Virus genome (UHGV): UHGV-1692207
DNA length: 14,343 nt
Reading direction: 5' to 3' (one strand)
DNA from: a virus
This document shows positions 1,174 through 14,343 of the stretch, piece after piece. The first letter of the stretch is position 1, and each line of letters opens with the position of its first letter. The translations under genes were made by a program, and so were the position numbers. The notes beneath the pieces are model-generated. The model ran no database searches. It saw only the letters and a list, made by a program, of their open reading frames with translations, and was not told the origin of the DNA.

Positions 1174-1317
1174 TGCCCGACTTATCTATCGTATAGCGGA
1201 AAAGAATTTCAGTTCTGTTCACCAGAACCCATGTTAACCCACTCCAATTCGTTATTTATCTCACGGATCCCCCTTCATTTATCTCATGTCTGATCACTCA
1301 CCCTGCTGAAAGATGAA

Positions 1318-2121
1318 GTGGTGATGCGCCAGGAAGCCACGGTGATCACCGTTGGTGGTTCCGACTACAAAAAACTGGTGAATCTGGGCGGCACGGCTTC
1401 CGGATGGGTTGGCGAGACTGACGCGCGCTCCCAGACTGCCACCTCAAAACTGGGCCTGATTGAACCTTTCATGGGGGAAATCTACGGTAACCCGCAGGCC
1501 ACCCAGAAAATGCTGGATGATGCCTTTTTCAACGTGGAAGCATGGATCAACAGCGAGCTGGCAACCGAATTTGCCGAACAGGAAGAAATTGCCTTTACCA
1601 CCGGCGATGGTACCAAGAAGCCGAAAGGGTTCCTGGCGTATGAATCCACTGATGAAACCGATAAGGTCCGGGCGTTCGGCAAACTTCAGCATATTGTATC
1701 CGGCGAAGCGACGGCGGTGACCGCAGACGCCATTATCAAACTGATTTACACGCTGCGTAAGGCACACCGCACTGGCGCGAAGTTCATGATGAACAACAAC
1801 AGCCTGTTTGCCATCCGTCTGCTTAAAGACAGCGAGGGTAACTATCTGTGGCGTCCGGGGCTGGAACTGGGGCAGCCGTCCTCTCTGGCGGGTTACGGTA
1901 TCGCTGAAAACGAACAGATGCCGGATATCGCCGCTGATGCGAAAGCCATTGCATTTGGTAACTTCAAACGGGGTTACACCATCGTTGACCGTATCGGCAC
2001 CCGCATTCTGCGTGACCCGTACACCAATAAACCGTTTGTCGGTTTTTATACCACCAAGCGCACCGGCGGGATGCTGGTCGATTCGCAGGCCATCAAACTG
2101 CTGAAGATTGCAGCGGCGTAA
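1318..2121 (+). CDS. Major capsid protein, HK97 family, C-terminal ~2/3 only; probable 5'-truncated remnant
   Basis: C-terminal region (GYGIAENEQMPD...FGNFKRGYTIVDRIGTRILRDPYTNKPFVGFYTTKRTGGMLVDSQAIKLLKIA) resembles the HK97 gp5 A-domain/C-terminus as I recall it; a TGDGT motif sits near residue 97. The frame is open only from the TGA at 1291-1293. Only a GTG (1318) or an ATG (1324) without a convincing SD is available as start. The ~130 aa that would carry the delta domain and N-arm are absent, and upstream sequence is non-coding. Confidence 0.7.
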   Translation: MVMRQEATVITVGGSDYKKLVNLGGTASGWVGETDARSQTATSKLGLIEPFMGEIYGNPQATQKMLDDAFFNVEAWINSELATEFAEQEEIAFTTGDGTKKPKGFLAYESTDETDKVRAFGKLQHIVSGEATAVTADAIIKLIYTLRKAHRTGAKFMMNNNSLFAIRLLKDSEGNYLWRPGLELGQPSSLAGYGIAENEQMPDIAADAKAIAFGNFKRGYTIVDRIGTRILRDPYTNKPFVGFYTTKRTGGMLVDSQAIKLLKIAAA

Positions 2122-2127
2122 TCACTC

Positions 2128-2150
2128 AGGGGCGCGGAACCGCGCCCCCT
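2128..2150 (+). terminator. GC-rich hairpin after the capsid gene (attenuator or partial terminator)
   Basis: GGGGCGC (2129-2135) pairs with GCGCCCC (2142-2148) around a GGAACC/GAAC loop. The downstream tract CTGTTCTG is only weakly T-rich, so readthrough is likely. Position after the major capsid gene is typical for stoichiometry control. Confidence 0.4.
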
Positions 2151-2170
2151 GTTCTGACGGGTGAAGAATC

Positions 2171-2371
2171 ATGATCCTGAAACAAGATCTGAAATGGTCA
2201 CCGGACGGTATGCGTGTTGAGGTCATTCGGGCCGGTGAGTATGACGATGGGGCGCTTCCTGCCCGGGTGCAGGAGATTGCACTTCAGGCCGGGTTAGCAG
2301 AGCGCGGAATCAGTGCAAAAAGCAGTAAAGCGGCAAAAGAGAAAAAAGCCACGACCAGTAAAGAGGGCTGA
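2171..2371 (+). CDS. Hypothetical small head-module protein (66 aa)
   Basis: ORF between the capsid and connector genes. Its stop (2369-2371) lies 3 nt before the next start. Lys-rich C-terminus. No family recognised. Confidence 0.45.
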   Translation: MILKQDLKWSPDGMRVEVIRAGEYDDGALPARVQEIALQAGLAERGISAKSSKAAKEKKATTSKEG

Positions 2372-2373
2372 GT

Positions 2374-2697
2374 ATGCTTCTGACAATGGAAGAGATTAAA
2401 GCCCAACTCCGGCTGGATGAGGATTTCGATGCTGATGACCGCCATCTGCAACTGCTGGCCTGTGCGGCACAAAAGCGGACGGAAACGTATCTGAACCGGA
2501 AGCTCTATGCACCGGATGAAACCATTCCGGACAGCGATCCGGACGGGCTGCACCTGCCGGATGATATTCGTCTGGGGATGCTGATGCTTATCAGCCATTT
2601 TTACGAAAACCGCTCGTCGGTTACGGAAGTGGAGAAACTCGACATGCCGCAGAGTTTTGGCTGGCTTGTCGGCCCGTACAGGTACTTTCCGCAATGA
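2374..2697 (+). CDS. Head-tail connector protein (phage gp6-like)
   Basis: 107 aa, MLLTMEEIKAQLRLDEDFDADDRHLQLLACAAQKRTETYL... resembles gp6-type connector N-termini. SD GAGGG precedes the ATG. Its TGA overlaps the next start as ATGA. Confidence 0.7.
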   Translation: MLLTMEEIKAQLRLDEDFDADDRHLQLLACAAQKRTETYLNRKLYAPDETIPDSDPDGLHLPDDIRLGMLMLISHFYENRSSVTEVEKLDMPQSFGWLVGPYRYFPQ

Positions 2698-3104
2698 AAA
2701 TTCGTCAGGCGCAGACCAGCGCAACCTACATTCTGCCGGACCCCGGTGAACTGAATAAACGCGTCCTGATCCGCCTGCGGGTGGATATGCCCGCGGATAA
2801 CTTTGGCGTGGAGCCTCAATACCTGATTACGTTCCGGACATGGGCGAAGGTTATCCAGACCAGTGCCACCACCTGGCAGGAAACCGCGCAGACCGGGGAC
2901 GCCATCACCCATTACATCACCATTCGTTACCGCCGGGGGATTACCGCTGATTATGAGGTGGTCTGCGGTGACAGTGTGTACCGGGTGAAACGTCAGCGCG
3001 ATCTGAACGGGGCGCGGCGCTTTCTGCTGCTGGAGTGTACGGAGCTGGGCGAATGTAGGCAGAGTCACGGAGGCAACAATGACGACTTCCTTTTTGCACG
3101 TTGA
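2694..3104 (+). CDS. Head-tail adaptor / head closure protein (lambda gpFII / HK97 gp8-like)
   Basis: 136 aa with the GEL..RV.I...........G.....T....WA.V......E......TH.ITIRYRRGIT pattern of the head-tail joining family. Start overlaps the upstream stop (ATGA). Confidence 0.7.
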   Translation: MKIRQAQTSATYILPDPGELNKRVLIRLRVDMPADNFGVEPQYLITFRTWAKVIQTSATTWQETAQTGDAITHYITIRYRRGITADYEVVCGDSVYRVKRQRDLNGARRFLLLECTELGECRQSHGGNNDDFLFAR

Positions 3105-3585
3105 TTTTCAGCAGCCCGCGGAGATGCGCTTTAACCGCGCCCGTGTCCGGCGGGCGTTTGTCACGATTGGTCAGCGTCATATGCGTGATGCCCGTCGGCT
3201 GGTGATGCGCCGTGCGCGGTCGGCACCGGGTGAAAACCCCGGTTATCAGACCGGACGCCTGGCTCGTTCGATTGGTTACATGGTACCCAGAGCCAGTAAA
3301 CATCGCCCTGGTTTTATGGCACGTATAGCCCCTAACCAGCGTAATGGAGAGGGAAACCGCCGTATCACCGGTGATTTTTATCCGGCTTTTTTGTTCTATG
3401 GCGTGAGGCGAGGGGCAAAGCGTCGTCGCAGCCATCATCGTGGTGCATCCGGTGGCAGCGGCTGGCGACTGGCTCCACGTAATAACTTTATGGTGGAAAC
3501 GCTTGAAAAGAACCGCAGCTGGACACGCTATTTTCTGGCGCGGGAATTACGTAAATCACTGAAGCCGGAGCGACGACGCAGATGA
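3079..3585 (+). CDS. Tail-component / neck protein, HK97 gp10-like
   Basis: 168 aa, Arg-rich, with GRLARSIGY and YPAFLFYG motifs that resemble HK97 gp10-family proteins. Strong SD GGAGG (3069-3073) 5 nt before the ATG at 3079. Overlaps the 3' end of the previous gene by 26 nt. Confidence 0.6.
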   Translation: MTTSFLHVDFQQPAEMRFNRARVRRAFVTIGQRHMRDARRLVMRRARSAPGENPGYQTGRLARSIGYMVPRASKHRPGFMARIAPNQRNGEGNRRITGDFYPAFLFYGVRRGAKRRRSHHRGASGGSGWRLAPRNNFMVETLEKNRSWTRYFLARELRKSLKPERRRR

Positions 3586-4142
3586 AACTGACGCCTGTTA
3601 TTGCTGCGCTGCGTGCCCGCTGCCCGTATTTTGAAAACCGGGTGGCAGGCGCGGCACAGTTCAAAAATCTGCCGGAGGTCGGAAAGCTGAGACTCCCGGC
3701 GGCATATGTGGTACCGGGTGATGACTCTCCGGGAGAAAACAAAAGCCAGACCGACTACTGGCAGGAGCTGAAAGAGGGCTTCTCCGTGGTTGTCATACTG
3801 AGTAACGGACGTGATGAGCGCGGTCAGTTTGCCTCGTATGATGTGGTGGACGATGTCCGGCAGATGCTCTTTAAGGCCCTGCTGGGCTGGAACCCGGAAG
3901 CGTGCGGTAACCCGATTACCTATGACGGCGGCACGCTGCTGGATCTGAATCGTCATGAGCTGATTTATCAGTTCGATTTTTCGGTCATCAGAGAGCTGAC
4001 CGAAGACGATACCCGCCAGCAGGATGACCTGAACAGTCTGGATGAACTGCGAACGCTGGCGATTGATGTTGATTATCTCGATCCCGGTAACGGGTCTGAC
4101 GGCGATATCGAACATCACACCGAAATACCCCTTCCTTCCTGA
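3582..4142 (+). CDS. Putative tail completion / tail terminator protein (precedes sheath)
   Basis: 186 aa. ATG overlaps the upstream stop (ATGA at 3582-3585). Acidic C-terminus. Its position directly before the sheath gene matches Mu/SfV-type tail modules. The 196-aa antisense ORF at 3528-4118 is treated as a shadow. Confidence 0.55.
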   Translation: MKLTPVIAALRARCPYFENRVAGAAQFKNLPEVGKLRLPAAYVVPGDDSPGENKSQTDYWQELKEGFSVVVILSNGRDERGQFASYDVVDDVRQMLFKALLGWNPEACGNPITYDGGTLLDLNRHELIYQFDFSVIRELTEDDTRQQDDLNSLDELRTLAIDVDYLDPGNGSDGDIEHHTEIPLPS

Positions 4143-4150
4143 GGATCATT

Positions 4151-4321
4151 ATGTTTGTGAAACCTGTTAAAGGGCGGTCAGTGCCTGACCCTGCCCGCGG
4201 CGACCTTTTGCCCGCCGAAGGGCGAAATGTTGATGAGAACAACTACTGGCTGCGCCGTGAAGCAGCGGGTGATATCCGGCGCGTGAATAAAAAGGTGAAC
4301 ACCGATGACGATAAGCTTTAA
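4151..4321 (+). CDS. Small hypothetical protein (56 aa) upstream of the sheath gene
   Basis: Not in the ORF track (<60 aa). ATG at 4151 with SD GAGGA (4141-4145) at 5-nt spacing. Translates MFVKPVKGRSVPDPARGDLLPAEGRNVDENNYWLRREAAGDIRRVNKKVNTDDDKL. Fills the only gap in the operon and its 3' end overlaps the sheath start. Confidence 0.4.
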   Translation: MFVKPVKGRSVPDPARGDLLPAEGRNVDENNYWLRREAAGDIRRVNKKVNTDDDKL

Positions 4322-5801
4322 CACCATTCCGTCGAATACGCTGGTTCCGCTGTTTTATGCGGAAATGGATAACCAGGCTGCGAATACTGCACAGGACAGC
4401 GGAGCATCGCTGCTGATTGGTCATGCCAATAACGGTGCAGAGATTGTTGCCAACAGTCTGGTACTGATGCCGTCGGCAGACTATGCACGCCAGATTTGTG
4501 GTGCGGGAAGTCAGCTGGCGCGTATGGTCGAGGCTTATCGCCAGACTGACCCGTTTGGCGAGCTGTATGTGATTGCCGTTCCTGAATCCACAGGCGCGGC
4601 GGCAACGGTTACGCTGACGGTGACCGGGGCGGCAACCGAAACCGGCACGGTGAATGTGTATGTGGGACGTACCCGCGTGCAGGTACCGGTGACTAACGGC
4701 GATAACGTTACGATGATTGCCAGCAGTATCCAGGATGCCATCAATGCCGTTCCGACCCTGCCGTTTACGGCTTCATCTTCGGCAGGCGTGGTCACACTGA
4801 CCGCGCGTCATAAGGGGCTTTGCGGGAATGAAATTCCTGTCAGCCTCAATTACTACGGCTTTGGTGGGGGCGAAGTGCTGCCAGCGGGCGTACAGATTGC
4901 CGTGGTGACGGGTACCGCCGGAACGGGTGCTCCGGTTCTCACCGGCGCTGTGGCTGCAATGGCGGATGAGCCGTTTGATTATATCGGCCTGCCGTTCAAC
5001 GACACGGCCTCCGTTAACACGCTGGTGACCGAGATGAACGATACCAGCGGTCGCTGGAGCTATGCGCGTCAGCTGTATGGTCATGTGTATACGGCAAAGA
5101 CCGGCACGCTGTCAGAACTGGTGACCGCAGGTGACCAGTTTAACCAGCAGCACATTACCCTGGCGGGGTACGAAAAAGACACCCAGACGCCTGCCGACGA
5201 GCTGGCGGCAAGCCGTACCGCCCGCGCAGCGGTGTTTATCCGCAACGATCCGGCACGTCCCACGCAGACCGGTGAGCTGGTGGGTATGCTGCCTGCGCCG
5301 AAGGGGAAACGGTTCACGATGACCGAACAAAAGACCCTGCTGTCTCATGGCGTGGCAACGGCGTATGTCGAAAGCGGGGTACTGCGCATTCAGCGTGATG
5401 TCACCACGTACAGGAAAAACGCTTACGGGGTTGCGGATAACAGCTACCTCGACAGCGAGACGCTGCATACCAGTGCGTATGTACTGCGCAAACTGAAATC
5501 CGTCATTACCAGTAAGTACGGGCGTCACAAGCTTGCCAGCGACGGTACCCGCTTTGGTCCCGGTCAGGCGATTGTCACCCCGGCGGTGATCAAAGGGGAA
5601 CTGCTGGCAACCTACCGTCAGCTTGAGCGTGCGGGGATCGTGGAAAACTACGAACTTTTTAAGCAGTACCTGGTTGTGGAGCGTGATGCCAGCGATCCGA
5701 ACCGCCTGAACACGCTGTTCCCGCCTGACTATGTTAACCAGTTGCGTGTCTTTGCCGTGGTTAACCAGTTCCGTCTTCAGTATTCAGAGGAGTCCGCATA
5801 A
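4305..5801 (+). CDS. Contractile tail sheath protein (Mu gpL-like)
   Basis: 498 aa. N-terminus MTISFNTIPSNTLVPLFYAEMDN resembles Mu L (ISFN.IPS...VPL.Y.E.DN) as I recall it. SD AAGGTGA precedes the ATG. Size and position fit a sheath. Confidence 0.9.
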   Translation: MTISFNTIPSNTLVPLFYAEMDNQAANTAQDSGASLLIGHANNGAEIVANSLVLMPSADYARQICGAGSQLARMVEAYRQTDPFGELYVIAVPESTGAAATVTLTVTGAATETGTVNVYVGRTRVQVPVTNGDNVTMIASSIQDAINAVPTLPFTASSSAGVVTLTARHKGLCGNEIPVSLNYYGFGGGEVLPAGVQIAVVTGTAGTGAPVLTGAVAAMADEPFDYIGLPFNDTASVNTLVTEMNDTSGRWSYARQLYGHVYTAKTGTLSELVTAGDQFNQQHITLAGYEKDTQTPADELAASRTARAAVFIRNDPARPTQTGELVGMLPAPKGKRFTMTEQKTLLSHGVATAYVESGVLRIQRDVTTYRKNAYGVADNSYLDSETLHTSAYVLRKLKSVITSKYGRHKLASDGTRFGPGQAIVTPAVIKGELLATYRQLERAGIVENYELFKQYLVVERDASDPNRLNTLFPPDYVNQLRVFAVVNQFRLQYSEESA

Positions 5802-6157
5802 TGGCCCGTATCGGGGGAACCTGTTATTTCAAAATTGACGGTCAGCAGCTATCGCTGACCGGCGGCATTGAGGTGCCCATGAACAGGACGGTCAATGATG
5901 ACATCATCGGCCTGGACGGTTCAGTGGACCGCAAGGAAACTCACCGTGCGCCTTATGTTAAAGGGACCTTCAAGGTGCCGAAGAATTTTCCGGTGAGCAA
6001 AATCACCTCGTCTGATGAGATGACCATCACTGCCGAGCTGGCGAACGGTCAGGTCTATGTACTGTCGTCTGCCTGGCTGCACGGCGAAGCGAACCATAAT
6101 GCCGAAGAAGGGACGGTTGATCTTGAGTTCCACGGTGAAGAAGGGGATTACCAGTAA
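5801..6157 (+). CDS. Tail tube protein (Mu gpM-like)
   Basis: 118 aa immediately after the sheath gene. Start overlaps the sheath stop (TAATG). SD GGAG at 5789-5792. Confidence 0.8.
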   Translation: MARIGGTCYFKIDGQQLSLTGGIEVPMNRTVNDDIIGLDGSVDRKETHRAPYVKGTFKVPKNFPVSKITSSDEMTITAELANGQVYVLSSAWLHGEANHNAEEGTVDLEFHGEEGDYQ

Positions 6158-6426
6158 TGAAAGAGCTTGAGTTAAAGAAACCGATTACCGCTCATGGCGA
6201 GACACTCTCCGTACTGGAGTTTGATGAGCCCACCGGGAAAGATGTCCGCGAGCTGGGGTATCCCTACCAGATGAATCAGGATGAGTCCGTCAGACTTCTG
6301 GCGCATGTGGTATCGAAATACATTGTGCGGCTGGCGAAAGTGCCGCAAAACTCTGTCGACCAGATGTCTCCGGCAGACCTGAATGCTGCGGCGTGGCTTG
6401 TGGCTGGTTTTTTCCTCCAGGCCTGA
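6157..6426 (+). CDS. Tail assembly chaperone (lambda G / P2 E analogue), short form
   Basis: 89 aa between the tube and tape measure genes. Start overlaps the tube stop (TAATG). A slippery heptamer lies near its 3' end. Confidence 0.7.
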   Translation: MKELELKKPITAHGETLSVLEFDEPTGKDVRELGYPYQMNQDESVRLLAHVVSKYIVRLAKVPQNSVDQMSPADLNAAAWLVAGFFLQA

Positions 6427-6575
6427 CGGCTGAATACCTCACTGATCGCTTCTTTGACTGCGCCAGCTACTGGCGCATTAATCCCTTCGAATTGCTGAAT
6501 ATGCCGATCAGTGAAATTCCCTTGCTGGTCAGTCAGGCAAACAGGATAGAGCAGGAGAAACGCACACATGGCTGA
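6157..6575 (+). CDS. Tail assembly chaperone, long form made by programmed -1 frameshift (G-T / E-E' analogue)
   Basis: Slippery heptamer T_TTT_TTC at 6408-6414 in the zero frame. The -1 frame is open from there to TGA at 6573-6575 (...FFPPGLTAEYLTDRFFDCASYWRINPFELLNMPISEIPLLVSQANRIEQEKRTHG), ending inside the tape measure start. Confidence 0.55.
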
Positions 6576-8403
6576 ATTTGAGCTTAAGGCGTTGATCACC
6601 GGTGTCGACAGGCTTTCTCCCGCGCTGTCGAAAATGCAAAAGAAAATCCGGGGATTTAAACGCCAGGCGGAAGAAGCGTCACAGGGTGGGCTGGCGCTTG
6701 GTGGCGGACTGGCTGCGGGTCTGACGCTTTCCCTGAAATCTTATGCCGATCAGGAAAACGCCGCCACCGGGCTGAAAGTTGCCATGATGGATGCGAACGG
6801 TGAGGTCGGAAAGCGCTTTCAGGACATCAATAAACTGGCTATTGGTCTGGGTAACCAGCTACCCGGTACAACGGCTGATTTCCAGAACATGATGCAGATG
6901 CTGGTGCGTCAGGGGATCCCGGCAGAAAACATTCTTGGCGGTGTGGGTAAAGCGACAGCTTATCTTGCGGTACAACTGAAAAAAACACCGGAAGCGGCTG
7001 CCGAGTTTGCCGCAAAGATGCAGGATGCTACCGGAACGGCGTCAGAAGACATGATGGGGCTGTTCGACACTATCCAGAAGGCGTTTTATCTGGGCGTTGA
7101 CGATACCAACATGTTGTCCTTCTTCACTAAAACCAGCTCTGTTCTGAAGATGGTGAACAAGGACGGTCTTCAGGCTGCACAGAGCCTTGCCCCCATCAGC
7201 GTCATGATGGATCAGATGGGGATGAACGGGGAGTCGGCAGGTAACGCCCTGCGAAAAGTTATCCAGTCCGGATTAAGCGTTAAGAAAATCAGGGACGTCA
7301 ATAAAGTCATGGCCCGCCAGAAACTCGGGGTACAGCTCGATTTTACTGACGGCAAAGGGAGTTTTGGCGGTCTTGATAACATGTTCAGGCAACTGGCAAA
7401 GCTGCGAAAACTGACCGACGTTAAGCGAACTGGTGTACTTAAGGCAATATTTGGTGATGATGCCGAAACCCTTCAGGTGGTCAATGCACTAATCGATAAA
7501 GGAAAGGATGGCTACGACCAGATCCAGCAGAAGATGAATAAACAGGCCAGTCTGAATAAACGTGTTCAGGCACAGCTTGGTACGCTGTCCAACCTGTGGG
7601 AGGCAATGACAGGGACCGCAACTAACGGCCTTGCGGCTATTGGCGGCGCATTTTCTGGTGACGCTAAAAATATCACGCAATGGCTGGGGGAGTTGGGGGA
7701 GAAATTCACGAAGTTTGCGGATGAAAATCCCCGGGTTATTCGCGGCGTCGTCGGGCTTGCTGCCGGTCTTGCGATTCTGAAACTGGGATTGATGGGCGTT
7801 GGCGGTGCCATCAGTATTGTCAGCAGGATCATGTCGATGACGCCGATTGGCATGATTGCGACGGCGATAGCCCTGGCTGCGGGATTAATTATCACTAACT
7901 GGGATGTTGTCGGACCTTATTTCAAGAAGCTCTGGGAAACCATTGGTCCTTATTTTGAGGCTGGCCGGGAACTTCTGAAGAAGGTTTTTGCCTGGTCGCC
8001 GCTGGGGATGGTAATCAATAACTGGGGACCGGTTGTTAAGTGGTTTCAGGATATGTGGGACAAGCTGAAGCCAATTATTGAGTGGTTTACCGACAGTTCC
8101 GGTGACACGGTCGATGCCATTAACTCTGCGCAGTGGGGCGCGGGTGCTTATGATGCTTATGGGACGGGAATACCGGCACGGGGATACACACCTTATCAGG
8201 CGGTGGATCCGGCTCAGTCAAACAACGCCTCCGGTGCCACAGGCCCGAATCCCTTCATGATTAACAAAGCTTCTGCGCCAAAAGTTGATGGTGAGATCAA
8301 GGTCTCTTTTGTGAATTCACCTCCGGGTATGCGGGTTATGGAAACGCGATCCAGCGGTTTTGATGTCAGCCATGATGTTGGCTATACGCGCTTTGGCAGG
8401 TAA
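6568..8403 (+). CDS. Tail tape measure protein
   Basis: 611 aa with Gly/Ala-rich hydrophobic segments and a position right after the chaperone frameshift pair. SD AGGAGA at 6552-6557. Confidence 0.85.
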   Translation: MAEFELKALITGVDRLSPALSKMQKKIRGFKRQAEEASQGGLALGGGLAAGLTLSLKSYADQENAATGLKVAMMDANGEVGKRFQDINKLAIGLGNQLPGTTADFQNMMQMLVRQGIPAENILGGVGKATAYLAVQLKKTPEAAAEFAAKMQDATGTASEDMMGLFDTIQKAFYLGVDDTNMLSFFTKTSSVLKMVNKDGLQAAQSLAPISVMMDQMGMNGESAGNALRKVIQSGLSVKKIRDVNKVMARQKLGVQLDFTDGKGSFGGLDNMFRQLAKLRKLTDVKRTGVLKAIFGDDAETLQVVNALIDKGKDGYDQIQQKMNKQASLNKRVQAQLGTLSNLWEAMTGTATNGLAAIGGAFSGDAKNITQWLGELGEKFTKFADENPRVIRGVVGLAAGLAILKLGLMGVGGAISIVSRIMSMTPIGMIATAIALAAGLIITNWDVVGPYFKKLWETIGPYFEAGRELLKKVFAWSPLGMVINNWGPVVKWFQDMWDKLKPIIEWFTDSSGDTVDAINSAQWGAGAYDAYGTGIPARGYTPYQAVDPAQSNNASGATGPNPFMINKASAPKVDGEIKVSFVNSPPGMRVMETRSSGFDVSHDVGYTRFGR

Positions 8404-8426
8404 TGAAAAATTAATCTGTTAATGAG

Positions 8427-8450
8427 TCCCACTCCGGTGGGATTTTTTAT
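8427..8450 (+). terminator. Intra-operon hairpin plus T-tract (attenuator or terminator) between the tape measure and N-like genes
   Basis: Stem TCCCAC (8427-8432) / GTGGGA (8437-8442), loop TCCG, then TTTTTTAT (8443-8450). Confidence 0.45.
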
Positions 8451-8463
8451 GTACGGAGTTTAT

Positions 8464-9792
8464 ATGACGTGGAAAGACAGACTTCAGGACGCGTCATTTC
8501 GCGGTGTGCCGTTTAAGGTTGAAGAAGAAAGTGCGGGAACCGGTCGTCGTGTGGAAACGCACGAATACCCGAACCGCGACAAACCCTATACCGAAGACCT
8601 GGGGAAAATCACTTTCCGCCCGTCCATCACAGCTTATGTGGTGGGAGATGACTGCTTTGACCAGCGCGATCGCCTGATTGACGCGCTGAATAAACCCGGT
8701 CCCGGCACGCTTGTCCATCCGACTTACGGTGAGCTGAAAGTCTGTGTTGACGGGGAAGTTCGGGTCAGCACATCGAAGAGTGAAGGGCGTATTGTCCGCT
8801 TTGACCTGAAGTTTGTCGAAGCGGGAGAACTCTCTTACCCCACTTCAGGTGCGGCGACGGCGCAGACGCTGATGTCATCCTGTTCTGCACTGGATGACTG
8901 CATCAGTGACAGCTTCAGTGGTTTCAGTATCGATGGCGTGGCAGATTTTGTGCAGAACGACGTCGTCGGTAATGCCAGCACAATGCTTGGGTATGTTTCT
9001 GATGCGATGAAAGTGGTGGATTCTGCCGTATCGGATGCCGCCAGGCTGTTGCAGGGGGATATCTCGGTACTTCTGCCGCCGCCATCGTCAGGCAAAAATT
9101 TCGTTGAGCAGGTGCAGAAAATGTGGCGTACCGGGAAACGCCTTTATGGTAACGCCAGCGACCTGGTCACCATGATCAAAACGCTTTCCGGTGTCAGCCT
9201 CGGCAGCGATCTGCAACCGCGCGGCGTCTGGAAAACGGACAGTAAAACCACCGCCACGGCGACGCAGCAGCGTAACGTGGTTGCCAGCACCCTTCGTACG
9301 ACCGCAATCAGCGAAGCGGCGTATGCCGTCACACGATTGCCTGCGCCCACAACTTCCGCGGTGATGCAGAATGCCACAGTGGGGCAGTCAACAACACCCG
9401 CGCAGAGCACCGGCTGGCCTTCTGTCACGCATCCGGCACTGAACAATGCACCGGCGGTGAAAAACACGGTTGACCTGCCAACGTGGGAAGAACTGACCGA
9501 CATTCGCGACACACTGAATACGGCAATTGATAAGGAGTTGTCCCGTACAACCAGTGATGTGCTGTTTCTGGCGCTGCGCCGGGTGAAAGCAGATCTGAAT
9601 GCGGATATCAACACGCGCCTTGAACAGTCTGCACGGATCATTCAGCGCACACCGGATGAGGTTTTACCCGCGCTGGTGCTGGCGGCGACCTGGTTTGATA
9701 ACGCGGCGCGTGACGCGGACATTATCCGGCGTAATGCCATTACGCATCCCGGCTTTGTGCCGGTGATCCCTCTGAAGGTGCCAGTGCAATGA
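8464..9792 (+). CDS. Mu gpN-like tail protein (DNA circularisation protein N family)
   Basis: N-terminus MTWKDRLQDASFRGVPFKV...GRRVETHEYPNRDKPYTEDLGK matches the Mu N signature as I recall it. I place the start at ATG 8464 (GGAG at 8455-8458, 5-nt spacing) rather than the ORF-track 8422, which would translate through the hairpin. Confidence 0.85.
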   Translation: MTWKDRLQDASFRGVPFKVEEESAGTGRRVETHEYPNRDKPYTEDLGKITFRPSITAYVVGDDCFDQRDRLIDALNKPGPGTLVHPTYGELKVCVDGEVRVSTSKSEGRIVRFDLKFVEAGELSYPTSGAATAQTLMSSCSALDDCISDSFSGFSIDGVADFVQNDVVGNASTMLGYVSDAMKVVDSAVSDAARLLQGDISVLLPPPSSGKNFVEQVQKMWRTGKRLYGNASDLVTMIKTLSGVSLGSDLQPRGVWKTDSKTTATATQQRNVVASTLRTTAISEAAYAVTRLPAPTTSAVMQNATVGQSTTPAQSTGWPSVTHPALNNAPAVKNTVDLPTWEELTDIRDTLNTAIDKELSRTTSDVLFLALRRVKADLNADINTRLEQSARIIQRTPDEVLPALVLAATWFDNAARDADIIRRNAITHPGFVPVIPLKVPVQ

Positions 9793-10868
9793 ACGATAAC
9801 GTCACGCTACGGGTAAATGGCCGGGAGTGGAATGGCTGGACATCGGTGCGCATCGGTGCCGGTATTGAACGGCTGGCGCGGGATTTCAGTGTGGAGATCA
9901 CCCGCCAGTGGCCGGGTGATGAGGGTATCACCACGCTTCAGCCGCGCATTAAAAACGGTTCAAAAGTGGAGGTGCTGATTGGTGATGAGCTGGTGATCAC
10001 CGGCTGGGTGGAGGCGACGCCCGTTCGTTACGATGCCCGTTCGGTCAGCACCGGTATTGCCGGACGCAGTCTGACCGCTGACCTGATTGACTGTGCAGCC
10101 GAACCGACACAGTTTAACGGACGATCGCTGGTACAGATTGCGCAGGCGCTTGCTGCGCCTTTCGGCATTGAGGTGGTGAACAACGGTGCGCCGTCGGGTG
10201 TTATTCCTGACGTCCAGCCCGATCACGGTGAAACGGTGATTGAGGTAATCAACAAAATACTCGGTCAGCAGCAGGCACTGGCTTACGACGACCCACACGG
10301 CAGGCTGGTGATTGGCGGTATTGGCTCAACGCGGGCACATACTGCGCTGGTACTCGGGGAAAACATCCTTTCCTGCGATACGGAGAAGAGTATCCGGGAG
10401 CGGTTTTCTGTTTACCAGGTGGCGGGGCAGCGTGCTGGAAACGACGATGATTTCGGTGAGGCCACCACCAGCGCGCTGCGGGCCCGCACAGAGGACGCAT
10501 TTATTGCCCGTTACCGTCCGATGTATATCAGGCAGACAGGGCAGGCTACGGGGGCAGGCTGTATTGCGCGTGCTGACTTTGAAGCCCGACAACGGGCGGC
10601 GCGGACGGATGAAACCACCTATGTGGTGCAGGGCTGGCGACAGGGTAACGGTACGCTGTGGCAGCCCAACCAGCGGGTGATTGTCTTCGATCCGGTCTGT
10701 GGTTTCGACAATACCGAACTGCTTGTCTCGGAAGTCACGTTTACTCAGGACCAGAACGGCACCCTGACGGAAATCCGTGTCGGCCCACCTGATGCTTATC
10801 TGCCTGAACCCGAAGCCCCCGGCGCGCGGAAAAAGAAAAAAGCCAGAGTACAGGAGGACCCGTTCTGA
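9789..10868 (+). CDS. Mu gpP-like baseplate hub / tail protein (P2 gpD-like)
   Basis: 359 aa. N-terminus ...LRVNGREWNGWTSVRIGAGIERLARDFSVEIT fits the gpD/Mu P family pattern. Start overlaps the upstream stop (ATGA). Confidence 0.8.
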   Translation: MNDNVTLRVNGREWNGWTSVRIGAGIERLARDFSVEITRQWPGDEGITTLQPRIKNGSKVEVLIGDELVITGWVEATPVRYDARSVSTGIAGRSLTADLIDCAAEPTQFNGRSLVQIAQALAAPFGIEVVNNGAPSGVIPDVQPDHGETVIEVINKILGQQQALAYDDPHGRLVIGGIGSTRAHTALVLGENILSCDTEKSIRERFSVYQVAGQRAGNDDDFGEATTSALRARTEDAFIARYRPMYIRQTGQATGAGCIARADFEARQRAARTDETTYVVQGWRQGNGTLWQPNQRVIVFDPVCGFDNTELLVSEVTFTQDQNGTLTEIRVGPPDAYLPEPEAPGARKKKKARVQEDPF

Positions 10869-11416
10869 TGAGTACGATTGAAGCCATGCAGCGACAACTC
10901 CTCGGCCTGATTGGGCGGGCAGTGGTGAAAAGCATCAGTGCCGCCACGAAATGTCAGACCGTGGATGTGTCCCTGATTGCCGGTGAACCCAAAGCCGGGG
11001 TTGAACATCTTGAACCCTACGGTTTTACCGCAAGGGCAAACAGCGGTGCGGAAGCGGTGGTGTTGTTTCCGGATGGTGACCGTTCTCATGCGGTGGTTGT
11101 TACGGTGTCGGACCGGCGCTACCGCCTGAAAGGGCTGCAGACGGGTGAGGTGGCGGTCTATGACGATCAGGGGCAGTCTGTGACGCTGACCCGGGAGGGG
11201 ATCGTGGTGGACGGTGCAGGTAAAACGATCACGTTTCGCAATGCACCTGAAGCACGTTTTGAAATGGACCTGGAAGTGACAGGACAGGTGAAAGACCTGT
11301 GCGACTCCAGCGGCACCACCATGTCAGCGATGCGGCTTGCCTATAACGGGCATCGTCACAGAGAGAACGGTCAGGGCAGTAACACCGACAAACCTGATAA
11401 AGCGATGGAGGCATGA
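10868..11416 (+). CDS. Baseplate assembly protein V-like (Mu gp45-like spike)
   Basis: 182 aa. Start overlaps the upstream stop (TGATG). Position after the P-like gene. Confidence 0.7.
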   Translation: MSTIEAMQRQLLGLIGRAVVKSISAATKCQTVDVSLIAGEPKAGVEHLEPYGFTARANSGAEAVVLFPDGDRSHAVVVTVSDRRYRLKGLQTGEVAVYDDQGQSVTLTREGIVVDGAGKTITFRNAPEARFEMDLEVTGQVKDLCDSSGTTMSAMRLAYNGHRHRENGQGSNTDKPDKAMEA

Positions 11417-11841
11417 TGGAACTGTGGCTGACGGTGAACGGTAAACGCACCTGCGCCAGCGCACCGCTGGATCCGCTGACCCGCGCCGTGGTGATTTCCC
11501 TGTTTACCTGGCGGCGGGCGGAGCCTGATGACAACGCCGACGTCCCGATGGGATGGTGGGGGGATACCTGGCCTGCGGTACAGAATGACCGTTACGGCTC
11601 CCGACTGTGGCTGCTTCAGCGCAGCAAACTGACCAATCAGCTGGTGCAGACGGTAAGGGGGTATATCCGCGAATGCCTGCAATGGATGATTGATGACGGC
11701 GTGGTGTCCCGTATTGATCTGGATATCCTCCGCACCGGGATTAATGAACTGGGTAACAGTATCACTCTCTGGCGTCGTGACGGACCGGTAATGATTTCTT
11801 TAGATGATCTGTGGAGTGCGATAACGCATGGCGGACAGTGA
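11413..11841 (+). CDS. Baseplate protein, Mu gp46 / GPW (gp25-like) family
   Basis: 142 aa, in conserved order after the V-like gene. Start is ATG 11413 or the adjacent 11416; GGAGG at 11406-11410 favours 11416. Confidence 0.7.
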   Translation: MMELWLTVNGKRTCASAPLDPLTRAVVISLFTWRRAEPDDNADVPMGWWGDTWPAVQNDRYGSRLWLLQRSKLTNQLVQTVRGYIRECLQWMIDDGVVSRIDLDILRTGINELGNSITLWRRDGPVMISLDDLWSAITHGGQ

Positions 11842-12886
11842 ATTTCAGCGCCCGACGCTGGCAGAAAATATCAGTATGCTCCGTAACGATTTATTCGCCA
11901 GGCTGGACGTCAGCGACACGCTCCGGCGCATGGATGAAGACGTGCGGGCAAAGGTGTATGCGGCGGCGCTGCATACGGTTTACGGGTACATCGATTATCT
12001 GGCAATGAACATGCTGCCTGACCTGTGCGATGAGTCCTGGCTGGCGCGACATGCTGCGATGAAACGGTGTCCGCGCAAGGGGGCCACGACTGCCAGCGGG
12101 TATATGCGCTGGGAAGGCGTCAGCGATGGCCTGAAGGTGACCGCCGGGAGTGTTATTCAGCGCGATGACCTGATTCAGTACACGGCAACTGCCGATGCAA
12201 CCAGCGCCGGTGGTGTCCTGCGCGTGCCGATCGCCTGCTCAAGTGCAGGCGCGGTCGGTAACGCTGACGACGGTACGTCATTAATCCTGGTCACGCCGGT
12301 TAATGGTCTGCCGTCTTCCGGCGTGGCAGACACTCTGACAGGTGGATTTGATACTGAAGAGCTGGAAACGTGGCGCGCCCGCGTCATTGAGCGGTATTAC
12401 TGGACGCCTCAGGGCGGGGCTGACGGGGACTATGTTGTCTGGGCTAAAGAATTGCCCGGCATTACCCGCGCATGGGCATACCGTCACTGGATGGGAACGG
12501 GGACTGTCGGTGTGATGATTGCCAGCAGTGACCTGATTAATCCCATTCCGGAAGAATCAACGGAAACGGCGGCAAGACAACATATCGGGCCACTGGCCCC
12601 GGTGGCAGGCTCTGATTTGTATGTGTTCAGGCCGGTGGCGCATACGGTGGATTTTCATATCCGTGTGACGCCGGATACACCGGAAATACGGGCTGCCATC
12701 ACCGCGGAGTTGCGTTCGTTCCTGCTGCGTGATGGTTATCCGCAGGGAGAACTGAAGGTGTCGCGTATCAGTGAAGCGATTTCCGGTGCGAACGGGGAAT
12801 ACAGCCATCAATTGCTTGCACCGGCGGAAAATATCTCCATTGCAAAAAATGAACTGGCGGTTCTGGGGACGATTTCATGGGCGTGA
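11828..12886 (+). CDS. Baseplate J-like protein (Mu gp47-like)
   Basis: 352 aa, in conserved position. Overlaps the upstream gene by 14 nt and the downstream gene by 10 nt. Confidence 0.8.
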
Positions 12887-13461
12887 CAAACGATGATTAC
12901 ATCCGTCTGTTGTCGGCACTGCTGCCGCCCGGTCCGGCGTGGTCAGCCAGCGATCCGGCGATTGCCGGTGCGGCACAGTCATTAACCCGCGTTCATCAGC
13001 GTGCGGATGCCCTGATGCGGGAGCTGGATCCGCGCACCACCACCGAACTGATAAATCGCTGGGAGCGTCTGTGCGGCCTGCCGGATGAATGTATTCCCGC
13101 AGGAACACAGACCCTTCGCCAGCGTCAGCAACGACTGGATGCGAAGGTTAACCTGGCGGGCGGCATCAATGAGGATTTTTACCTTGCACAGCTTGCTGCC
13201 CTGGGCAGACCAGACGCCACCATCACGCGATACGACAAAAGCACGTTCACCTGCTCATCGGCCTGTACTGACGCGGTGAATGCGCCGGAATGGCGGTATT
13301 ACTGGCAGGTCAACATGCCAGCCGCCACCAACAGCACCTGGATGACATGTGGCGATCCCTGTGATTCCGCGCTGCGTATCTGGGGCGACACCGTCGTCGA
13401 ATGTGTGCTTAACAAACTCTGCCCTTCGCATACCTACGTAATTTTTAAATATCCGGAGTAA
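12877..13461 (+). CDS. Mu gp48-like tail protein (DUF2313 / YmfQ-like)
   Basis: 194 aa immediately upstream of the tail fibre gene, as in Mu-like baseplate modules. Cys-rich C-terminus. Confidence 0.7.
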
Positions 13462-13464
13462 TCC

Positions 13465-14232
13465 ATGCATCGTATAGACACGAAAACCGCGCAGAAGGAT
13501 AAGTTCGGCGCGGGTAAGAACGGTTTTACCCGTGGTAACCCCCAGACAGGCACGCCTGCCACCGATCTGGATGATGAGTACTTTGACATGTTGCAGGAAG
13601 AACTCTGCAGCGTGGTGGAGGCATCCGGTGCCAGTCTGGAGAAGGCGCGGCACGACCAGCTGCTTACCGCGCTTCGTGCGCTGCTGTTAAGCCGCAAGAA
13701 TCCGTTTAGCGATATCAAATCGGACGGCACGGTGAAAACGGCTCTCGAAAACCTTGGTTTGGGGGAAGGCTCTGCATTGCCTGTTGGTGTACCGGTTCCA
13801 TGGCCCACCGCCACACCGCCAGCAGGCTGGTTAAAGTGCGACGGGCGCGCCTTTACAAAAGAACAATATCCTGTTCTGGCCAGAGTCTACCCGACCCTCC
13901 GTCTTCCTGATTTACGCGGTGAGTTTATCCGTGGATGGGACGACGGGCGCAAGATTGACGAGGGGCGTAAGTTGCTTTCATGGCAGAAAGGTACACTGGT
14001 CGGCGGTCATGACGATAACGATTCTTCGCTGGATATCTCGTACATGAGTAACGGAAATAATATTGACTATGGCGGCGATAAGGTGTTTGCGGGGAATTAC
14101 CGTAGCGATTATTTGTGGTACGCAATTCTGGGTGGAACAAACAGTCGCGCAAAAGCCGAATTAAACGGAGCATTCTTTAACATAACCCGCCCCCGCAATA
14201 TCGCGTTTAACTATATCGTGAGGGCGGCGTGA
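13465..14232 (+). CDS. Tail fibre protein: conserved N-terminal baseplate-attachment part fused at an invertase crossover site to a variable C-terminal part with a tail-collar domain
   Basis: 255 aa. SD GGAG (13455-13458) 6 nt before the ATG. Collar-like motif PVGVPVPWP...[17 protein letters not shown]-terminus [11 protein letters not shown] is nearly identical to the lambda Stf C-terminus ([11 protein letters not shown]) as I recall it. Residues ALENLGL are encoded by the hix/gix-like site. Confidence 0.8.
13742..13767. other. Putative 26-bp crossover site for a Hin/Gin/Cin/Pin-family serine DNA invertase (left boundary of an invertible tail-fibre segment)
   Basis: CTCTCGAAAACC-TT-GGTTTGGGGGAA: imperfect dyad around a central TT. 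The left half matches the hixL half-site TTCTTGAAAACC at 10 of 12 positions. It sits in the tail fibre gene where constant and variable parts join. Confidence 0.5.
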
Positions 14233-14238
14233 TACCGT

Positions 14239-14343
14239 TCAGCTGGCAAGTGCCAGTGGCGCTTCCGGCCAGCTGATTTCAGGTGCCGTGCTGATATCCA
14301 GTGCGTTCAGCTCGTCGATATAATCCAGCACGGCGTTCAGTTT
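14239..14343 (-). CDS. Tail fibre assembly protein (Tfa-like), C-terminal fragment; 5' end beyond window
   Basis: Minus-strand frame open from the window edge to TGA (complement of 14239-14241). Translation ...KLNAVLDYIDELNALDISTAPEISWPEAPLALAS resembles the lambda Tfa C-terminus (...RVDTSTAPDIEWPAVP...) as I recall it. Convergent with the tail fibre gene, 6 nt between stops. Confidence 0.5.
   Translation of the reverse strand, partial: KLNAVLDYIDELNALDISTAPEISWPEAPLALAS

Follow-up and report, generated by a model that had tools for sequence, protein, structure and literature searches.

The stretch of DNA analysed here (the window; 14,343 nt of the virus genome UHGV-1692207) is a prophage late region in which the head genes are followed by a Mu-type contractile tail and baseplate. 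The genes of the tail and baseplate found in the window are those of the sheath, the tube, the tape measure, the DNA circularisation protein and the gp44-48 homologues. The source of the window is an ENA metagenome contig (ERZ19695073, k141_10750) of 14,604 nt, which ends 175 nt beyond the window. The coordinates of the features described below are presented in Table 1. The tail-fibre gene is located directly 3' of the Mu gp48/YmfQ baseplate gene, and the C-terminal part of its product contains a Pfam Collar domain (aa 108-155, E 6.7e-16). A second gene, on the minus strand, converges on the fibre gene; its stop codon (14239-14241) is found 6 nt past the fibre stop. The C-terminal end of its product is ...KLNAVLDYIDELNALDISTAPEISWPEAPLALAS* (also given as ...AVLDYIDELNALDISTAPEISWPEAPLALAS), and the 92-aa fragment encoded on the source contig matches Pfam Caudo_TAP (E 2.8e-21), as expected from a reading of the sequence alone (hereafter the sequence-only reading), which had described a Tfa-like gene converging on the fibre straight after its stop.

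At the other end of the window, positions 1-1296 (end of the portal gene, prohead protease and start of the capsid gene) have no alignment to the B2 e14-like prophage, which matches positions 1297-13767 almost perfectly; another mosaic joint is thus located in the head region.

Table 1. Features of the fibre region. Coordinates refer to the window unless a locus is named.
Feature	Coordinates	Strand	Basis and remarks
YmfQ / Mu gp48 baseplate gene	12877..13461	+	Pfam Phage_Mu_Gp48, E 1.4e-26; ymfQ in the annotation of relatives
Tail-fibre gene, 255 aa	13465..14232	+	ORF and translation; e14/SfV-type constant N-terminus, variable C-terminus
Constant fibre part (Sc), e14-like backbone	13465..13753	+	Near-identity to B2 e14-like prophages
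Pin-type crossover site, 26 bp	13742..13767	none	CTCTCGAAAACC left half, TT core (13754-13755), GGTTTGGGGGAA right half
Left arm of inverted repeat, ~230 nt	13749..13979	none	Repeat common to both alternative C-termini; right arm inferred from relatives
Variable fibre C-terminus (Sv), first gene of the cassette, currently joined to Sc	13756..14232	+	100% identical to N61
tfa, 3' end including stop codon	14239..14343	-	Translation; gene continues past the ends of the window and of the source contig
pin remnant, 41 codons, in B2 e14-like prophages	L009 8950-9072; L004 8450-8572; L010 8856-8978		

The crossover site in the fibre gene

The site consists of two 12-bp imperfect inverted half-sites, which flank a 2-bp core, and the core palindrome AAACCTTGGTTT has one occurrence in the window. 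The reverse complement of the site, TTCCCCCAAACCAAGGTTTTCGAGAG, shares 25 of its 26 bases with the published pixL site of e14 (TTCTCCCAAACC AA GGTTTTCGAGAG; PMC3241671, Table 3). The same agreement (25/26) is seen with the left pix site of the K-12 e14 prophage as read from NC_000913, while the sites of E. coli 85.0412 and 2022E04-002 are identical to it (26/26); the identical site occurs in complete E. coli genomes which have an inverted partner site and pinE. Based on a search allowing up to three mismatches, the window contains a single match, at these positions, and none was found in the 200 shuffled controls (0/200). These results bear out the half-site and spacer architecture of hix, gix, cix and pix sites which the sequence-only reading had recognised here. 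A second (partner) site is absent from the window and also from the 175 nt by which the source contig extends past it.

The codons from 13741 read A-L-E-N-L-G-L-G-E through the site, in frame with the fibre ORF. The homology to SfV, SfI, SfII and SfIV extends from ymfQ to 13768 and ends there, the homology to K-12 e14 ends at 13769, and the homology to other cassettes begins at 13749-13751. As the breakpoints of SfV-, K-12- and cassette-type homology are all found at 13749-13769, the site is the boundary between the constant and the variable part of the fibre, and the earlier proposal that it encodes an ALENLGL join of these two parts holds. Positions 13742-13767 are a genuine Pin-family DNA-invertase crossover site within a prophage tail-fibre gene.

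The cassette in related prophages and its two orientations

From 13751 to the end of the source contig, the sequence is identical (768/768) to the fibre cassette of a P2-like prophage in E. coli N61 (NZ_CM165883.1; locus L008). The order in N61 is: constant part, site, Sv (plus strand), tfa of 204 aa (minus strand), Sv' of 170 aa (minus strand), inverted site and a recombinase of 190 aa, which has 76% identity to PinE. Sv' is an alternative collar-type fibre C-terminus (170-172 aa in relatives), and the inverted second site, TTCCCCCAAACC AA CGTTTATCTCTC, is located at L008 6378-6403. In E. coli 85.0412 (L001) the cassette is found at ~96-98% identity behind a DUF2612-type baseplate. It also contains the full-length tfa (204 aa) and is followed by a recombinase with 96% identity to PinE and the Pfam domains Resolvase and HTH_7; a recombinase of the cassette relatives matches Resolvase with E 1.4e-51. 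Inverted second sites are present in L001, L002 and the metagenome contig L011 as well. The N61-type cassette is common in sequenced E. coli, being found in about 195 complete genomes, and its recombinase is routinely annotated pinE. The window-type Sv/tfa junction is present in 198 E. coli records (the whole 1.6-kb segment in 195-197), and the same cassette occurs behind at least four different tail backbones.

The two alternative C-termini have in common an inverted repeat which starts in the site. Its arms comprise 231 nt in 85.0412 (230/231 complementary on direct recount, 100% by the repeat finder) and ~229 nt in N61 (96% complementary), with 229 nt and 87% complementarity in phage 503046. 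The left arm of the window is 91-96% identical to the distal arms of the relatives. A patch of ~30 nt within the arms (13829-13860 and the equivalent positions of L001, L002, L008 and L011) exists in two versions, which are spread over the arms without pattern and independently of the tip that follows; this is probably due to gene conversion between repeat arms.

No sigma-70-like promoter was found in the N61 cassette, which is consistent with promoterless alternative ends. Also, a TAATG overlap couples Sv' translationally to the single tfa (L001 6543-7164; L008 5253-5874, window-equivalent 14232-14853), while the window-type Sv has no co-oriented tfa; one state of the switch is linked to the chaperone and the other is not. 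Concerning the annotation of these genes, PGAP (RefSeq) calls fibre parts beside invertible segments 'incomplete' pseudogenes (L001 5728-6289 and 7164-7682; L010 6666-6984). These labels are an annotation artefact of the constant/variable architecture. The end of the source contig inside tfa was considered as a sign of inversion and rejected, tfa being a widespread repeat (624 matching records).

Both orientations of the segment occur in near-identical prophages, here among relatives and not within the source population. Over 1901 nt, the sequences of 85.0412 and ECE170 agree at 99.9-100%, save for the inversion of the 1627-nt segment between the sites; the crossover could fall anywhere in the 231-nt repeat, and for that pair the inversion may have been RecA-mediated. 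In phage 503046 and the metagenome contig L011, the window-type tip is the silent one, and N61 has the opposite orientation. Orientation counts based on a query coverage of at least 80% are uninformative, as the segment makes up 86% of the query, and full-length top matches were used. An exact search of metagenome contigs with a 90-nt junction matched one contig, L011, in which the cassette is flipped and the backbone is of L001 type.

The Mu G (Gin) and P1 C (Cin) segments are switched by serine invertases at 26-bp sites with a 2-bp core in the fibre gene, and their alternative C-termini alter the host range. The window cassette shares this logic of serine invertase and 26-bp site, although the Mu gix and P1 cix sequences differ from the window site. 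Also, each orientation of Mu G and P1 C provides a fibre end with its own assembly gene (S-U / S'-U'), whereas the window cassette has a tfa in one orientation only. The e14 P segment of K-12 (PinE) resembles the window in the position of the site in a StfP-type fibre after ymfQ, in the site itself (25/26 to pixL), in its backbone (95.5% identity over 12965-13769) and in a constant N-terminus which is joined to invertible C-termini. However, it is 1797 bp long and has short repeats (~21-26 bp) and two tfa genes (tfaP and tfaE), whereas the window cassette has two collar-type tips, a single tfa, repeats of ~230 nt and an origin in a P2-like prophage lineage. The comparison with the Mu G, P1 C and e14 P segments made in the sequence-only reading is thus appropriate for the switch logic and does not extend to the single tfa and the long inverted repeats. 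In p15B Min, several mix half-sites are identical to the cassette-side half-site TTCCCCCAAACC (site table of PMC3241671), but this system has six sites and many segments, whereas the relatives of the window cassette have two sites. Inversions in the tail fibres of E. coli prophages have been described before (PMC4272514, PMC9881135), and in every property of Din (Hin/Gin/Cin/Pin) segments which the available sequence allows to be tested, the cassette agrees with the family.

A different view of the locus is that the site and the partial cassette are a frozen relic of a past recombination, with no functional invertase and with the fibre fixed as in SfV. SfV orf21/orf22 (and likewise SfI, SfII and SfIV) shares the Mu-type tail module of the window (97.5% identity up to 13768) and has kept the site (25/26), yet its tfa is co-oriented, with a terminator and the gtr/int genes behind it, and SfV lacks both a second site and an invertase, so that the fibre is fixed. 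As SfV keeps the site without a partner or an invertase, the site alone is insufficient proof of a switch. Also, in the closest backbone relatives, B2 e14-like prophages which are identical to the window backbone, pin breaks off after 41 codons and a DUF262 gene comes next. The window, unlike SfV, has a convergent tfa and a cassette which is 100% identical to one beside an intact recombinase, and these two traits set it apart from the SfV relic. Moreover, the P segment is found in opposite orientations in SF-166 and PA45B despite the pin remnant, which points to inversion before the truncation of pin or by a trans-acting invertase. Inversion of the e14 P segment at these repeats by PinE has been demonstrated experimentally (PMC12529663, PMC4272514), and Pin paralogues acting in trans also invert e14, as PinQ of the Qin prophage does with the P segment (PMC12529663). 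Given the action of PinQ and the states of SF-166 and PA45B, the lack of a cis invertase would not preclude switching, and we consider a frozen relic unlikely.

The joint between the e14-like and the P2-like parts

Over positions 10800-13767, the window has at most one mismatch (13764) to the e14-like prophages of B2 E. coli (SF-166, PA45B, 2022E04-002 and others). It is exactly identical to SF-166 up to 13763 and exactly identical to N61 from 13751. The two parental tracts overlap in 13 nt, ACCTTGGTTTGGG (13751-13763), which contain the core TT; the 2-bp core is the position of strand exchange by Din recombinases (PMC3241671). N61 and the window have the same Sv tip and the same convergent tfa, whereas 5' of 13751 the N61 fibre is unrelated to the window: as the constant part, N61 has a P2 H-type fibre of 530 aa (left half-site TCCTCAATTACC), and the window has the e14-type N-terminus of 92 aa (left half-site CTCTCGAAAACC). 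The reading frame is kept across the joint (LENLGLGE in the window, LNYLGLGE in N61). Judged by these identities, the window site is a hybrid of an e14-type left half-site and a cassette-type right half-site. Since the left half-site and everything upstream are e14-like, and the right half-site and everything downstream are those of the N61 cassette, the hybrid is what site-specific exchange between the fibre sites of two prophages would be expected to yield.

Ordinary homologous recombination in the conserved collar-domain region, with an accidental coincidence with the site, would also give a hybrid. The alternative tips have ~230 nt of near-identical sequence in common, and the ~30-nt patch is distributed among the repeat arms as if by gene conversion, both of which agree with such an origin. 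However, out of the ~230 nt of possible homology, the joint is limited to 13 nt at the 2-bp core, the parents offer homology on the downstream side only, being unrelated on the other, and several independent mosaics break in the same 26 bp. For these reasons we regard an origin by ordinary homologous recombination as quite improbable. That the assembler misjoined an e14-like prophage and a P2-like cassette at a common sequence is highly improbable: the source is a short-read, MEGAHIT-style contig (k141) which ends in the repeated tfa gene, and the hybrid combination is absent from complete E. coli genomes, but at the joint the parental tracts have 13 identical bases in common, far short of the 140-nt overlap required by a k=141 graph, the identical contig is recorded in three samples, and in E. 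coli 2022E04-002, a complete genome, this backbone and this hybrid site recur with a different P2-like cassette attached.

The exact hybrid fibre is found in one contig only, recorded in those three samples, and in 0 of 5,426 complete E. coli genomes, so that its downstream context has no direct precedent. The e14 hybrid is also absent from the metagenome contigs matched by the exact 90-nt junction search, L011 being the only one matched.

In 2022E04-002 (L012, NZ_CM132301.1 1530000-1579900, ~28200-32100; equal to L005 6166-10066), the e14-like tail module, which up to 13767 is identical to the window, meets a P2-like late region head-on. The latter is on the opposite strand (H, I, J, W, V...), and the linking region has four pix-like sites. 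No invertase is found in this four-site invertible region between the e14-like and the P2-like modules, and P2 sheath, tube, tape-measure and int genes are absent from it. The arrangement looks like an inter-prophage inversion at fibre crossover sites.

Proposed mechanism and its meaning

Taken together with what is seen in its relatives, the end of the window likely lies within an invertible host-range cassette of the Pin family (Hin/Gin/Cin/Pin, 'Din') in an e14/SfV-like prophage of E. coli. The interpretation as an invertible host-range switch, which the sequence-only reading had put forward together with a second site, an alternative fibre end and an invertase gene just past the window end, is supported through these relatives. 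For this genome we infer three things: the remainder of the cassette follows, an active invertase is present in cis or in trans, and site-specific, not homologous, recombination gave rise to the hybrid.

The rest of tfa, the alternative fibre end and the inverted second site very probably follow downstream, and by equivalence with N61 the second site is predicted at about window-equivalent 15357-15382. That an intact invertase comes directly after the window end is likely rather than assured; it is less certain because the backbone relatives keep only the 41-codon pin and 2022E04-002 has none between its modules. Concerning the downstream context, an N61-like arrangement with an intact recombinase ~1.1 kb past the window end would have slightly less than an even chance. 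A convergent P2-like tail module, or a cassette swap with the truncated e14 pin, may follow instead, each of the two being rather unlikely and to about the same degree. In the known systems, a Fis-dependent recombinational enhancer is located in the 5' part of the invertase gene, a position which here falls outside the window.

According to the proposed mechanism, a serine invertase would cut at the central TT (13754-13755) and at the inverted partner site ~1.6 kb downstream, and the segment between the two sites would then flip. In the present state the constant fibre part (aa 1-~96) would be fused to the collar-type tip Sv, and in the other state to Sv', whose gene would be translationally coupled to the single tfa. 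The two states may confer two receptor specificities, either on virions or on a prophage-encoded surface protein. The hybrid copy would have arisen when two different prophages, one e14-like and the other P2-like as in N61, exchanged strands at the core of their fibre sites; the reciprocal junction of such an inter-prophage exchange would be the P2-type half-site TCCTCAATTACC-TT-GGTTTGGGAGAA, followed by the e14-type tip.

We tentatively suggest, as a possibility of somewhat less than even standing, that two co-resident prophages, an e14-like one at icd and a P2-like one elsewhere in the chromosome, exchanged DNA at their fibre sites by the action of Pin, and that the window contains the product. 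If this is true, a large chromosomal inversion would hand a host-range cassette, and possibly the sole intact invertase, from one prophage to another.

This type of switch is already known, invertible fibre cassettes being textbook biology, so that one more of them contributes little, and what novelty there is, of a modest degree, lies in the hybrid joint alone. The window offers a base-resolution example of a serine-invertase site as a portable joint, at which receptor-binding modules are traded in frame among unrelated prophages. Where a chromosome contains several prophages, this trade may also rearrange it. The finding has implications for the prediction of phage host range from genomes, for fibre genes that are wrongly assembled or annotated, and for the role in defence recently reported for inversion of the e14 P segment.
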